Below are positions 11,166 to 20,000 of a DNA stretch of 20,000 bases, piece after piece. The stretch is from IMG/VR virus record IMGVR_UViG_3300043473_000028. One strand, given 5' to 3'. Origin of the DNA: an uncultured virus (IMG/VR IMGVR_UViG_3300043473_000028) (Duplodnaviria > Heunggongvirae > Uroviricota > Caudoviricetes). Position 1 is the stretch's first letter, and each line of letters starts with the position of its first letter. The translations under genes and the position numbers were made by a program. A model generated the notes under the pieces. That model did not search any database. It was given only the letters and a program-made list of their open reading frames with translations, and had not been told where the DNA came from.

Positions 11166-11363
11166 ATGTCTGAAGAGGCCCCGGTGGCCATACCCACCGA
11201 TTTCTACACTGAAGACGGGTTTGTGAAGTCAATCAGCATGAGTTCACACCCGGCTGTGGGTGACACCGTGGTGGTTGACGGCCAGATGTACAAGGTGACC
11301 GCCCGTAGCTGGGATTGTGACGTTGGCGGCATGCCGCTGCTGGTGCGCATCCGCGTAGAATAG
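11166..11363 (+). CDS. Small hypothetical protein
   Basis: GAAGGT upstream of ATG 11166. 65 aa with a P.VGDTVVVDG..YKVT.R.W small beta-barrel-like pattern. Followed by a hairpin. Confidence 0.6.
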   Translation: MSEEAPVAIPTDFYTEDGFVKSISMSSHPAVGDTVVVDGQMYKVTARSWDCDVGGMPLLVRIRVE

Positions 11364-11388
11364 GGGCGGCCCATCTGAGAGCCGCCCC
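11363..11388. terminator. GC-rich hairpin at the convergence of late genes and minus-strand genes
   Basis: GGGGCGGC-ccatctgaga-GCCGCCCC perfect 8-bp stem between convergent stops. No strong U-tract. Confidence 0.5.
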
Positions 11389-11429
11389 CAACCCCACTGC
11401 CTGCCGGGCGGGGGGCTTGCTTAGGGCAG

Positions 11430-12197
11430 TCAGGCAGGCGTGGAATGATTGCGGCGGTGACGCCGTAGCAACAACAGGCCGCCAACTGCGGTGCCAAACA
11501 GCGGCAGCGCGGCGGGCAGCGGCACGGGTGACGGTGCTGCGTTCAGAAAGAAGCTGTCTGGCCCGTCATTCATGTCTGACATGCGGGCAAGAAACAGTAC
11601 CGTGTCACCGATGCTGATATCGTTGCGGTTCAGGTCAAAGCCGGTGATGGAGTAGTCGGGATACCCGGTGCCGTTGTTGGCTGAGGGGATGTTGCCCGTG
11701 GTGCCGCCAGTGAAGCTGGCCAGCACGGTGTGCGTGGTGAGGTTCAAGAACCAGAAGCTGTTCAGCGTCTGCGGCGTGCCGGTGTCGTTGACATCAAGGC
11801 CGACGCTGAAGGTTGTGCTGCCAAGACCGCCGCCAGCCTCAAGAAAATTTCTGAACAGACTGCCAGAGCCGATCTGGTAGCCGACACCGATGACATCATC
11901 GCCAAGCGTAGCCCGGCCAGAACCACCATCAGAGAAGGCGCTGATGCCGCTGAGATTGCCAGCGTTCTTGAAGTCGTTGTAGCCAAAGCCCGCAGGCTGC
12001 TGAGGCTGGTTTGCCCCGCAGATGAGGCATGGTGAGTTCTGCGGCTGGTTGCCAGCGGGCACCACCGCGCCAAGGCTCAGGTTGCCAGAGTTGGTGGTAT
12101 CCCACTGCACGCCGCCAAGCGTGACAAAGGTTGCGGCCTGAGCCGGTACAATCCAAGCCAGCAGCGATAGGGCCGCTGCTCCCAATATAGTTTTCAT
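11430..12197 (-). CDS. Secreted VPLPA-CTERM (PEP-CTERM-type) sorting-domain protein
   Basis: ATG 12197 is preceded by GGGGATGG. Sec signal peptide MKTILGAAALSLLAWIVPAQA-A. Mature region is Gly/Asn/Ser/Thr/Asp-rich. C-terminus PSPVPLPAALPLFGTAVGGLLLLRRHRR gives motif + TM helix + Arg cluster. Confidence 0.92.
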   Translation of the reverse strand: MKTILGAAALSLLAWIVPAQAATFVTLGGVQWDTTNSGNLSLGAVVPAGNQPQNSPCLICGANQPQQPAGFGYNDFKNAGNLSGISAFSDGGSGRATLGDDVIGVGYQIGSGSLFRNFLEAGGGLGSTTFSVGLDVNDTGTPQTLNSFWFLNLTTHTVLASFTGGTTGNIPSANNGTGYPDYSITGFDLNRNDISIGDTVLFLARMSDMNDGPDSFFLNAAPSPVPLPAALPLFGTAVGGLLLLRRHRRNHSTPA

Positions 12198-12263
12198 GAT
12201 ATGCCATCCCCAAATTTTGAGCCGCGCACCACGCCAGCGGCCCCCTGTGGCGTCTGCACCGAC

Positions 12264-12292
12264 ATAGTACACCCGGTGCCAAAAGGTGAAAG
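12264..12292 (-). promoter_or_regulatory. Candidate promoter of the VPLPA-CTERM gene
   Basis: Minus strand reads CTTTCA-N17-TACTAT, about 65 nt upstream of the ATG. The -35 match is weak. Confidence 0.35.
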
Positions 12293-12329
12293 GGGGCGGC
12301 CCCAACCAACCAAAGTTTAGACCGCCCCC
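12281..12329 (-). terminator. Intrinsic terminator downstream of the helicase
   Basis: Minus strand reads GGGGGCGGTCT...GGGGCCGCCCCC followed by TTTCACCTTTT, about 45 nt after the helicase stop. Confidence 0.62.
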
Positions 12330-12372
12330 CTACCGCCACACGCTGTGCCCGTGAAGTCACAGCGGGCAGTAT

Positions 12373-13875
12373 TCAAATCCATGCCTCAAGTCCGTCTTGC
12401 ACCACGGCGCGGGCAACGCTGCGCTTGGCGCGCAGGGCCCGTATGATCTTTTCATCCACGCTGTCTGGCGTCACCAGATCAACATAGGTCACTGTGCCCT
12501 TGGTGCCAATGCGGTGGGTACGATCTTCTGACTGTTCACGTATTTCCCAATCATACCCGTTTGAATAGTAGATGACCAAGGTGGCCGCCGTCCATGTGCG
12601 GCCACGCGCGCCTGCTTGGTCAGTGGCAACCATGAAGCGGCGGCGGCCAGCCTGAAAATCAGCCTCACCCGCCTCACGTTGGGCCATGCCGATTTCACCG
12701 TGCCATTCAGCCACACTATCATCACCGTACAGCTTACGCAATTCGCCTGCCACCAATAATGCGTCAGGCCGCCAGTGGCACCAGATCACCACCTGCTCTT
12801 CAGTGGCACCCACGATGTCAGCCACCGCCGCCATGCGGTTGCTGTCAAGGCGGCGTAGCACGCCGTCATCGGTCTTGACGTGGCCGCAGATGACGCAGTG
12901 CATGCGCATAAGCTGGGTGACCACTAATTCGGTACTCACCTCAGCATAGGTGGTGAGGTGCTTGATGCTGACCTTGGCCAGCGCAAACTCACGCAGTTCA
13001 CGGTAGACGGTCTTCTGTTCGGCAGTAAGCTCAACCTCCCAGTACTGGTACTGCTTGGGCGGCAGATCAAGGCAATCCACCTTGCGCCGCCTGAAGCTGT
13101 ACATCGCCACCAGCCGCTGAAGCTCTTCGGTGTTGGCCGGGCCAGCCTCTTTTCTAACGGTGTGCCCACCCGCCTGTATCTGGATCATTTTGTTGAAGTG
13201 CGCCTGAAACAGGATGAATTTTCTGAAGCCCAGCGGGTTGTTGTTGGGCCGCAGAAACTCAAACTGCCCCCACAGGTCAGACTGTGAGCCTGTGGACGGT
13301 GAGCCGGTCATGATGCGGCGCATGGCGGCGCGCAGGCTCAGCTTGTGCAGCAACTTGGTGCGCTGGGCCTTGGGGTTCTTCATGATGGTGGATTCGTCCA
13401 CCACGATCATGGTGCGGTAGACCTTGCAGAACTCCATGACCAGTTCAGCCGCGTCCACGGTGGTGGCCAGAGCCTCTACGTTGACCAGCAGGATGCGCGG
13501 GCTGGGCTGCTGGTTGTCCAGCAGCCACCTGCGCGCGGCGGCATCGGGCGTCTTGCGCCCGGCGCGGTACATGTAGACCCGCGCGGTGTCTTGGTACTTG
13601 GCCCACATCCAGCGCTGAAGCTCACCGGGGTTGCCATCGTCTTCACGGGCCCAGTTGCCATAGACGCCCTTGGGGGCAACCACCAGCAGGCCGTCCACGC
13701 GGTCATCTTCATAGTTCAGCAGAAAGTCATCCAGCGCGATGCGGGTTTTGCCCAAGCCCATCTCAAGGAAATAGGCAAAGAAGTCACGCCGCCAGCCGTA
13801 GCTGAGCGCCTCATACTGGTGCGCCAGCGGCGTTGAGCGGGGGGCGTAGGTGGTGGGGATGTCTTGGTAGGTCAT
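12373..13875 (-). CDS. SNF2-family (SF2) helicase/ATPase
   Basis: HQ motif, motif I LEMGLGKT, LVVAPK, motif II VVDEST, motif III MTGSP, LPPKQY, VVIWC, GRGRTWTAA and motif VI QSEDRTHRIG. Start placed at ATG 13875 (alternative 13887). The track's extension to 13962 is unlikely. Confidence 0.93.
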   Translation of the reverse strand: MTYQDIPTTYAPRSTPLAHQYEALSYGWRRDFFAYFLEMGLGKTRIALDDFLLNYEDDRVDGLLVVAPKGVYGNWAREDDGNPGELQRWMWAKYQDTARVYMYRAGRKTPDAAARRWLLDNQQPSPRILLVNVEALATTVDAAELVMEFCKVYRTMIVVDESTIMKNPKAQRTKLLHKLSLRAAMRRIMTGSPSTGSQSDLWGQFEFLRPNNNPLGFRKFILFQAHFNKMIQIQAGGHTVRKEAGPANTEELQRLVAMYSFRRRKVDCLDLPPKQYQYWEVELTAEQKTVYRELREFALAKVSIKHLTTYAEVSTELVVTQLMRMHCVICGHVKTDDGVLRRLDSNRMAAVADIVGATEEQVVIWCHWRPDALLVAGELRKLYGDDSVAEWHGEIGMAQREAGEADFQAGRRRFMVATDQAGARGRTWTAATLVIYYSNGYDWEIREQSEDRTHRIGTKGTVTYVDLVTPDSVDEKIIRALRAKRSVARAVVQDGLEAWI

Positions 13876-13882
13876 TGAAAAC

Positions 13883-13912
13883 AGCATACATTCGCTTGCT
13901 TCAGGATGTAAA
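13883..13912 (-). promoter_or_regulatory. Sigma70-like promoter for the helicase
   Basis: TTTACA (13912-13907)-N18-TATGCT (13888-13883), 7 nt before ATG 13875. Confidence 0.55.
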
Positions 13913-14054
13913 GTGGCATGCAGCCGGGGCGTAACCGGGGTGAATTGGGTAGAAATCTGCACTGGGCCAACGGGGGATGTCAGGGTGAGCCAATGGTGAG
14001 ACGGGGTGACCGGGGGGCTAGAGATGGCTGTTTTGCCCCGTTTTCTCCAGATTG

Positions 14055-18538: not shown

Positions 18539-18571
18539 TGTCAGGTTTGTAACAAACCAATAGGGGTGTCT

Positions 18572-18949
18572 ATGAGTAAAATAACCGAATACAACACGCC
18601 GCCAGTGCCTGATGTGCTGGTGGAGGTCATGCAGCCAGTCAAGCTGTTTCTGCGCATGATCCCGTATGCCATTGAGTTGTGGATGACCGACGCAGAGTTC
18701 AAGAAGCTGAACACGGCGGTCAACAACAAGGATAGCGTCAGCGGCACGCTTGCGCTTGACCACATCGTGGCAACCCAGAGGGTGCAGAAATTTGCCAAGG
18801 AAAAGGGTGATACGCTGGTTGCTGGCGCACCCCTGAACGTGGCCAAGAAGAGCTACACCCACACGCGCAAGCATCTGGGCATTGACATCACCACGCGCCG
18901 CAAGGTGGGTGGCCCGCTGATCACTGATGGCAGCGGCGCTGCTGAGTGA
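18572..18949 (+). CDS. Hypothetical protein
   Basis: RBS ATAGGGG then ATG 18572. 125 aa with a basic C-terminal part. Followed by a terminator. Confidence 0.72.
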   Translation: MSKITEYNTPPVPDVLVEVMQPVKLFLRMIPYAIELWMTDAEFKKLNTAVNNKDSVSGTLALDHIVATQRVQKFAKEKGDTLVAGAPLNVAKKSYTHTRKHLGIDITTRRKVGGPLITDGSGAAE

Positions 18950-18955
18950 CCGGCT

Positions 18956-18986
18956 GGGGCAGGCGGATCAACCGTCTGCCCCTTTT
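18956..18986 (+). terminator. Intrinsic terminator
   Basis: GGGGCAGGCGG-ATCAA-CCGTCTGCCCC-TTTT. Confidence 0.75.
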
Positions 18987-19004
18987 CAAAAAACAGGGGT
19001 GAAG

Positions 19005-20000
19005 ATGTCTGACCTGACACAACCAACCACCATACCCTATGACGCCGCCGTGACTGAGGTGCGTGACCTGTTCACGCGGGCTGAGCGTGATCTGTGGCGC
19101 ATCGCTGAAATTGTGGCGCACCTAGAGCCGAAATACGGTGAAGGCACGCTGAAACGGTTTGCCGCAGACATTGGTTTAGCGGGGCGTACTGCTCGCTTAT
19201 ACCGTGAAACTTATGAGAAATGGAACCCTGTCATCAATCAAAATGGCAAACGTTTGCCATTTGTGCCTCTGACCATAGCCGCTCAATTGAATGGCCACCC
19301 AGATAAGGAACGTATAGTGCTAGAGAACCCCAATCTGAGTGCGCGTGACGCGGCCAAGTTCATGGATCAACACAAGCCCAAAAAGAAGAAAGCTGACCCC
19401 AAACCCAAGCCAGAGCCTGAGCCCACGCCTGAAGAGCGCGCCCTGCGCGCCTATGACCGGCGCAAAGCGGCAGGTGAGCCCATCACGCATGACCTGATTG
19501 CCAAAGAAGCGGGCGTCAGTGATGGCACCGCCAATAAGGCCATAGGCATCCGCCGGGCTGAAGAAAAGCAGGCTAAGGAAAAGGTTGAACTCAGCAAATC
19601 AAAGCAGAAACAATTTGACGCGGCCATGCGGGCTGAGCAAAAACGGCTTGAGCATCTGTTTGAAACGCGCGTGCTGGCTGAAGTCAAGCGGCGCATGGAT
19701 GAATTTACCTTACCACAATGGCTTGAAAACTTTAAGGGGTTGCTGAGTGACATTAAGTACAGAAAAGGTGTCATGAAGCATGAAGAGTACCGCAAGATCA
19801 TGAAGTGCTTGCACCCTGACACCGTTCAGCATCTGAACCCGCCAGCAGAACTGATGGCTATGTTCAATGAAGCTTTTGGCATCTTCAAGCGCTATGAGCT
19901 TGCGCTGTGCAATGAGAGAGAGTTGCCCAGCAATGCGCCGCCGCTACCCACGCTGGCTGAACTGCACGCCCGCCGCGCCGCCGATGATGCGGCGCAGAAG
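19005..20000 (+). CDS. Multi-domain protein (3'-truncated): two HTH-like motifs and a C-terminal J-domain-like HPD motif
   Basis: Not in the ORF track; translated by hand. RBS AGGGG, ATG 19005, open for 332 codons: MSDLTQP...YGEGTLKRFAADIGLAGRTARLYR...ITHDLIAKEAGVSDGTANKAI...EEYRKIMKCLHPD...MFNEAF. Confidence 0.85.
   Translation, partial: MSDLTQPTTIPYDAAVTEVRDLFTRAERDLWRIAEIVAHLEPKYGEGTLKRFAADIGLAGRTARLYRETYEKWNPVINQNGKRLPFVPLTIAAQLNGHPDKERIVLENPNLSARDAAKFMDQHKPKKKKADPKPKPEPEPTPEERALRAYDRRKAAGEPITHDLIAKEAGVSDGTANKAIGIRRAEEKQAKEKVELSKSKQKQFDAAMRAEQKRLEHLFETRVLAEVKRRMDEFTLPQWLENFKGLLSDIKYRKGVMKHEEYRKIMKCLHPDTVQHLNPPAELMAMFNEAFGIFKRYELALCNERELPSNAPPLPTLAELHARRAADDAAQK
19241..19262. repeat. 22-bp perfect palindrome within the CDS
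   Basis: AAATGGCAAAC|GTTTGCCATTT is self-complementary with no spacer. Confidence 0.95.

Follow-up and report, generated by a model that had tools for sequence, protein, structure and literature searches.

P0001 is the product of an accessory phage gene and would probably be sorted by the host PEP-CTERM/exosortase system to the envelope, where its domain would carry a surface role; the exact benefit to the phage is kept apart from this reading. The gene lies in a 20-kb window (the whole stretch of DNA analysed) of a 79,494-bp contig, and the genes of the window are those of a tailed phage, encoding tape measure, NlpC, TipJ, fibre, endolysin, SNF2 helicase, Pam3 gp33/gp34-like and primase proteins. 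The sorting system itself is known; what is new is the size of the family, its viral restriction and the switching of its tails. Our literature search found no paper on tailed-phage PEP-CTERM proteins, and supplementary annotation tables might mention such genes.

Architecture of P0001 and its sorting tail

The preliminary description of this DNA proposed a 255-residue protein with a Sec-type signal peptide and a complete VPLPAA-TM-RRHRR tail, and indeed the ORF, the hydropathy profile and the conservation of the AxA motif agree with it (Table 1). The N-terminus is hydrophobic and ends in AQA-A; in an alignment of 91 homologues, A21 is invariant and A19 almost invariant. Hydropathy peaks at residues 1-30 and 225-245 only, with no internal TM segment. 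The tail runs in the order VPLPAA, LPLFGTAVGGLLL and LRRHRR, followed by 6 residues to the C-terminus. Its hydrophobic segment is short, with 13 residues past VPLPAA, and the AF2 model places a helix at 230-250. P0001 thus has the PEP-CTERM layout of motif, hydrophobic helix and basic cluster, within ~10 residues of the C-terminus. Thr, Ser and Asn each account for 9.4% and Lys for 0.5%, and the base-poor passenger is also Gly-rich. The composition of the gene (GC 0.61, GC3 0.72) is comparable to that of its neighbours. A longer reading from a TTG start at 12305 was ruled out, since homologues begin at Met and a Shine-Dalgarno-like sequence precedes 12197. A role as a virion protein was likewise ruled out by the signal peptide and membrane tail, in a tailed phage.

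Table 1 Features of P0001 and its surroundings, in window coordinates
Feature	Coordinates	Strand	Basis or remark
P0001 gene, 255 aa; secreted protein with PEP-CTERM-type C-terminal sorting tail	11430..12197	-	ORF call, profile searches
Sec-type signal peptide, residues 1-21	12135..12197	-	Hydropathy and AxA conservation; cleavage after AQA inferred
Passenger domain, residues 22-219, predicted jelly-roll beta-sandwich	11541..12134	-	AF2, weak fold matches, conservation, dN/dS
Tripartite sorting signal	11451..11525	-	Profile search, hydropathy, sequence
VPLPAA motif	11508-11525	-	Part of tripartite sorting signal
Hydrophobic segment	11469-11507	-	Part of tripartite sorting signal
Basic cluster	11451-11468	-	Part of tripartite sorting signal
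Shine-Dalgarno-like GGGGA, 9 nt ahead of ATG	12207..12211	-	Sequence; position kept in L043, L045, L200
Leader hairpin, 7 bp, 11-nt loop	12219..12243	-	Common to relatives with VPLP-type tails; suggestive
Possible promoter element, 8-nt core GGTGTACT	12264..12273	-	Core also 5' of the homologue in L043 and L045
GC-rich, terminator-like hairpin after helicase stop	12289..12330	-	Folding
Hairpin between convergent genes	11363..11389	.	Folding; also in empty site of L246
Flank: SNF2-type helicase	12373..13962	-	Profile searches
Flank: 64-aa gene, end of late/lysis block	11169..11363	+	100% identical in relative with empty site

First scans of the whole protein returned no NCBIfam or PHROG family and one sub-threshold Pfam match. 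At relaxed E-values, the VPLPA-CTERM model TIGR03370 ranked first for the tail, matching over its full length (model positions 1-25) with 20.5-21.3 bits on the tail and 15.3 on the whole protein, under the curated cut-off of 25.35. Under this model, the earlier assignment to VPLPA-CTERM holds for rank and not for score (21 vs 25.35 bits). TIGR02595 (PEP_CTERM) gave 17.4-18 bits on the tail fragment and 14.7 on the whole protein (cut-off 16), and PF07589 gave 16-17 bits (cut-off 20.7). A search with the tail region returned six proteins. Two relatives scored individually exceeded curated cut-offs, P0046 for PEPxxWA-CTERM (39.4 vs 35) and P0003 for PEP_CTERM (26.3 vs 16); P0073, P0083 and P0117 also fell under the TIGR03370 cut-off (19.5-20.6 bits). 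The cognate enzyme of VPLPA-CTERM is exosortase D, and because the TIGR03370 score is under its cut-off, XrtD specificity of the P0001 tail is only putative. P0001 thus resembles VPLPA-CTERM in its top-scoring, full-length match and differs in scoring under the cut-off and in having a domain that elsewhere bears PEP, PEPxxWA, TPLP and VPGPxxGAG tails.

The original account of the PEP-CTERM/exosortase system (TIGR02595, EpsH/XrtA; Haft 2006, PMC1569441) describes its proteins as rich in Thr, Ser and Asn. The likeness extends to the signal peptide, the lack of an internal TM segment, the Thr/Ser/Asn-rich passenger, the motif-TM-basic tail near the C-terminus, and a single-gene unit with a spacious upstream region. 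However, the P0001 family is encoded by phages without an exosortase, and the P0001 motif has Leu for Glu. The word 'phage' does not occur in the main text of that paper.

An accessory gene in the helicase slot

The gene opposes the late genes, as the preliminary description stated in calling it antisense, but has the same orientation as the SNF2 helicase upstream. Contigs from soil runs X2-X4, which come from three studies distinct from that of X1, the possible source run, span both P0001 junctions: the 3' end of the gene is covered by X3 (11321-11511) and X4 (11170-11465), and its 5' side by X2 (11783-12292 and 12263-12567) and X3 (12165-12353). Six coding differences occur in these contigs, of which three are silent and three conservative. 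Homologues also occupy the same slot in L244 and L249. The chimeric assembly envisaged earlier is excluded by these independent contigs and homologues. That P0001 is neutral captured host DNA, or a chimera after all, would fit its absence from most syntenic loci; however, this reading is effectively refuted by both-junction coverage, by the silent and conservative nature of the differences, by the homologues in the same slot and by purifying selection on the domain.

We compared seven IMG/VR loci whose helicase is 72-77% identical to that of the window, counting the near-copies L246 and L247 once. The family gene lies downstream of the helicase in two (L244 and L249, ~53% identity) and is missing in the other five. 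The empty site of L246 leaves just 86 nt from the helicase stop to the neighbour's stop, compared with 1009 nt in the window. G001, the nearest record (79.6 kb, 97% complete, 82-83% identical across the tail genes), has two other genes in the P0001 slot and nowhere matches the family profile. A pair of genes found past the primase block in the window (18566-20000, compared with L245:7506-8969) fills this PEP-CTERM slot in G001, which makes the slot an exchange hot spot. The term moron, used in the preliminary description, therefore fits as far as an accessory insert is meant. It is unlikely to fit as lysogenic conversion, since neither G001 nor G008 (100% complete) has a match to the tyrosine or serine recombinase models (PF00589, PF00239). 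The suggested recurrence between lysis and helicase genes holds for L244 and L249. Over 123 cases in the family, the upstream neighbours belong to 81 different families, with terminase the commonest (17), and share the strand of the family gene in 118.

The promoter of its own that had also been suggested for P0001 is at most a candidate. No promoter came out of the sigma-70 scan of 12198-12372, the candidate element in Table 1 included, and a sigma-54-like site at 12267-12281 has two mismatches, at chance level. None of 68 non-redundant family genes has the exact sigma-54 pattern within 250 nt upstream; sigma-54 control is no property of the P0001 family, in contrast to sigma-54/PrsR-regulated proteobacterial PEP-CTERM genes. 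A sigma-54-type site does lie at L084:9134-9148 in a 93-kb phage, 37 nt 5' of the first of two tandem PEP-CTERM genes, and this first gene is a different cargo. The proposed upstream terminator folds strongly (z -3.3), but its U-tract is broken and it is absent from the terminator-scan list. The downstream hairpin is present, but it also occurs in a relative's empty site and is therefore older than the insertion. Both hairpins have a common 15-nt direct repeat at a spacing of 930, and the P0001 gene may have entered through recombination at a terminator.

The leader hairpin is paired in 28 of 28 cells across four sequences, with one pair altered on both sides, a result equalled by 80 of 500 shuffles. 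Rfam gave two sub-threshold chance matches. In run X2, a single low-depth contig, the 63-nt leader (12200-12262) has six substitutions and three indels against one change in 415 nt of coding sequence. One of these leader changes converts a G-U pair of the hairpin to G-C in the same low-depth contig.

In agreement with the earlier observation that the window has no exosortase, TIGR04178 found none in 47 virus records (45 carriers, G001 and G008), with a positive result for a bacterial control genome. The best cultured-phage matches are Rhizobium, Bradyrhizobium and Sinorhizobium phages, and a GcrA-like gene lies near the family gene in 23 of 232 loci (for example L197:7626-8180). The host is probably a soil alphaproteobacterium (Hyphomicrobiales), an assignment that is only a hint because the cultured-phage identities are 32-42%. 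The tail, which had been thought to point to the host group, is a weak pointer because the same domain bears five tail classes.

Three further features of this lineage were noted. G001 encodes a DNA polymerase, a thymidylate synthase-like protein and a 5-hmdU kinase-like protein, and its cluster of 5-hmdU kinase-like, thymidylate synthase-like and myo-inositol-1-phosphate synthase-like genes (L256:2808-14330) suggests DNA base hypermodification in the phage lineage. Two large ORFs (864 and 969 aa) precede its scaffold and capsid genes (L258:5124-10851) and gave no PHROG match in their first 600 residues. In the window, a distal-tail-like gene at 1529-2491 has an inserted segment weakly resembling a GTA spike-fibre domain (22.6 bits, cut-off 36).

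A conserved passenger domain on switching tails

Homologues of P0001 made up 480 of 6828 candidates, and 238 family representatives (50% clustering) pass E 0.001. We scanned IMG/VR, metagenomes and GTDB with two peptide patterns each and judged the matches against the 91-member alignment: true relatives numbered 204 of 263 in IMG/VR, 372 of 443 in metagenomes and 0 of 41 in the 185,579 GTDB genomes. This pattern scan also found no prophage copy of the family gene in GTDB. Scanning GTDB again with P0144, a distant relative, yielded 2 of 372 matches, both short and unconvincing. In the phylum of one planctomycete, 4 of 301 genomes match the distant-family profile, mainly across the tail. P0001 had no match among 50,697 INPHARED phage records or 72,556 plasmids, nor did its tail alone in the plasmids.

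Among the best 80 metagenome loci of the family, taken without viral pre-selection though many are the same contigs as in IMG/VR, 36 of the 38 of at least 5 kb have a PHROG-matching neighbour and 22 of the 38 a virion or lysis gene. This neighbour scan used 105 representatives of 495 neighbour clusters. For the 62 neighbour proteins without a PHROG match, Pfam gave only GcrA, YdaS, DUF3846 and HIRAN, and no housekeeping genes. In the three structurally nearest ESM Atlas clusters (59, 53 and 218 members), viruses account for 90-100% of the members that have a record. The P0001 family looks phage-restricted, its absence from cells being judged from two exact peptide patterns in GTDB, the structure clusters and the neighbour-gene scans. 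A distant relative falls near bacterial PEP-CTERM clusters, by a score that includes the tail, and this is a lead for a cellular origin of the domain.

AF2 models the passenger domain as a beta-sandwich (pLDDT 83). Among solved structures it comes closest to jelly rolls, which include many carbohydrate-binding modules; the best match has Z 7.1 (rmsd 3.4 over 117 residues) and none reaches 8, and these matches may reflect only a common arrangement. Foldseek gave nothing at E<=0.001 against PDB and BFVD, no CBM family of Pfam matches P0001, and the domain is without a Pfam, PHROG or NCBIfam model. Because the fold matches are weak, glycan binding is only a lead. The domain contains a CxxC motif (C57/C60) and invariant D135, D181, D211 and D214. 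The 91 homologues have 30 invariant columns, among them Asp, Asn and Gln, and every one except A21 is within the domain; the invariant residues and the CxxC motif would fit an exported ligand- or Ca2+-binding domain.

These constraints bear on whether P0001 is a decoy that would saturate the host exosortase and thereby clear the surface of host PEP-CTERM proteins, a form of the exosortase competition raised in the preliminary description. In favour of a decoy, the tails are similar to signal classes of hosts, and the leaders seem to be structured, as we would expect of stable mRNAs. However, dN/dS over 46 disjoint pairs is lower in the domain (0.095) than in the tail (0.23), and a decoy is further disfavoured by the confinement of the invariant columns to the domain. 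The strong constraint argues that the domain acts through its own binding, and we consider the decoy very improbable.

The tripartite tail is present in 121 of 126 family members. Classification of the tails began with 193 proteins, five truncated or frameshifted ones having been removed earlier; 140 remained after near-copies and unparseable tails were dropped, and our regex labels divide these into VPGPxxGAG (78), PEPxxW (24), TPLP (17), VPLP (16) and PEP (5). At E<=0.05, 18 of the 91 aligned members match VPLPA-CTERM, 14 PEPxxWA-CTERM and 14 PEP_CTERM. No NCBIfam model covers the commonest class, VPGPxxGAG, so its cognate exosortase is not known. On a quick ML tree of the domain alone (140 rows), tail class changes at least 28 times, where the minimum is 4, a count that recombination within the domain may inflate. 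With an outgroup there are 29 changes against a shuffled mean of 61.8; tail classes are therefore clustered yet often switched. For three tail classes, the starred branches require 12, 10 and 7 changes. Even with TPLP and VPLP merged, the two tails are of different class in 37 of the 206 pairs whose domains are at least 80% identical.

P0001 itself is a mosaic. Its tail is 92% identical to that of P0083, where the domains are 53% identical, and its domain is 79-80% identical to those of the PEP-tailed P0003 and P0004, where the tails are 33-50% identical. Over 125 non-independent rows, tail identity to P0001 tracks the signal peptide (rho 0.28) and not the domain (rho -0.01). Leaders move together with tails: a single hairpin motif is found 5' of 10 of 16 PEPxxW genes and of 1 of 52 other genes. 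This motif is part of a conserved two-hairpin leader ~70 nt 5' of the family gene, seen in L022, L055, L056, L069, L070, L072, L155, L163, L166, L181 and L217. In this leader, which is linked to PEPxxW tails, 8 of 15 pairs are altered on both sides, and it may be a new cis-regulatory RNA. Leader, signal peptide and tail appear to form a host-adapted frame that recombines separately from the passenger domain.

These phage loci also encode eight further proteins that combine a CTERM tail with an unrelated passenger, and several of their genes lie in tandem with the family gene. Such proteins were noted at L043:6784-7410, L199:9476-10111, L084:9186-9932, L094:3380-4099, L096:3441-4166, L036:8837-9514, L075:13226-13888, L018:3318-4007 and L034:8753-9445. 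The one in L043 resembles the cellular FxDxF PEP-CTERM family (39.9 bits, cut-off 50).

The tails also bear on the possibility that they are uncleaved inner-membrane anchors, with no exosortase involved and a periplasmic domain that might, for example, block entry of superinfecting phage DNA. Phages do have membrane-anchored exclusion proteins, and the sub-threshold VPLPA score and the unmodelled dominant class would suit such an anchor. However, a generic anchor needs no motif prolines, yet both are at least 90% conserved in the 91 homologues, nor would it switch among recognised exosortase signal classes. We therefore consider an uncleaved anchor unlikely and favour sorting by a host exosortase.

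Proposed role and meaning for soil phages

We propose that host Sec would export P0001, signal peptidase would cut it after residue 21, the tail would arrest the protein in the inner membrane, and a host exosortase would cleave it, so that it is displayed on the surface or within the EPS layer. We are fairly confident of these steps jointly. They are modelled on PMC1569441 and PMC12188702, and in the latter study the tail peptides themselves went undetected. The jelly-roll domain could then bind a surface glycan, possibly with Ca2+, an assignment we put forward tentatively. By analogy with T5 Llp, the likeliest benefit would be masking of the infected cell's glycan receptors, so that competing phages are kept out and progeny do not adsorb to lysed-cell debris; as a specific proposal, this is possible but doubtful.

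Adhesion is a close rival to masking and has the sorting step in common with it. Here the exosortase-sorted protein would tie the infected or carrier cell into flocs or EPS, so that progeny are freed beside susceptible cells or a lysogen gains fitness in a biofilm. Cellular PEP-CTERM proteins stabilise EPS-cell contacts, according to PMC12188702. An integrase scores over its cut-off in 13 of 45 carrier records, and the second cargoes weakly resemble PepA/EDSAP-1. However, tyrosine integrase matched in 4 of 21 near-complete carriers and in none of the other 17, the GTDB pattern scan found no prophage copy, and the window's own lineage is without both recombinase types, so that it is likely non-integrating. 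Because most near-complete carriers are without an integrase, we prefer masking over lysogenic biofilm conversion, and regard adhesion as rather unlikely.

Receptor masking by a non-integrating phage has a precedent in Llp of phage T5, a lytic-conversion lipoprotein. Llp is a functional analogue of the masking proposed here, but it binds a protein receptor and uses no C-terminal sorting signal. SasX, a phage-encoded surface protein, relies on the host sortase. It is encoded by a phiSPbeta-like prophage of S. aureus and promotes aggregation (PMC10232760), but it involves Gram-positive cell-wall anchoring and lysogenic conversion, and is likened by function only. A gene annotated with a PEP-CTERM domain, HOG10, is also found in IME1, a virus-like element of Dehalococcoides (bioRxiv 10.64898/2026.09.15.751708). 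HOG10 is set apart as a conserved core gene of a filamentous/budding-like integrative element, whereas the P0001 family is a mobile accessory of tailed phages.

More broadly, and with less confidence than for P0001 itself, unrelated soil tailed phages, mostly without an integrase, might draw on a mobile pool of exosortase-substrate cassettes, in which recombination joins a virus-specific glycan-binding domain to any leader, signal peptide and tail that suit the exosortase of the host at the time. So far, work on PEP-CTERM/exosortase sorting has treated it as a cellular biofilm system, and a large, selected and apparently virus-restricted substrate family would show soil phages exploiting it. 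One conserved passenger on five tail classes is a natural panel for exosortase substrate specificity and could help find the enzyme behind the unmodelled VPGPxxGAG signal, and the passenger domain is a candidate new phage exclusion or adhesion factor. If the cassette pool is real, it would amount to a general and so far undescribed hijacking of Gram-negative surface sorting by viruses, the dominant VPGPxxGAG tail class included, and would remodel the EPS layer of the infected cell. Our findings suggest that many soil phages make use of the sorting enzyme of their host to change the surface of the cells they infect.
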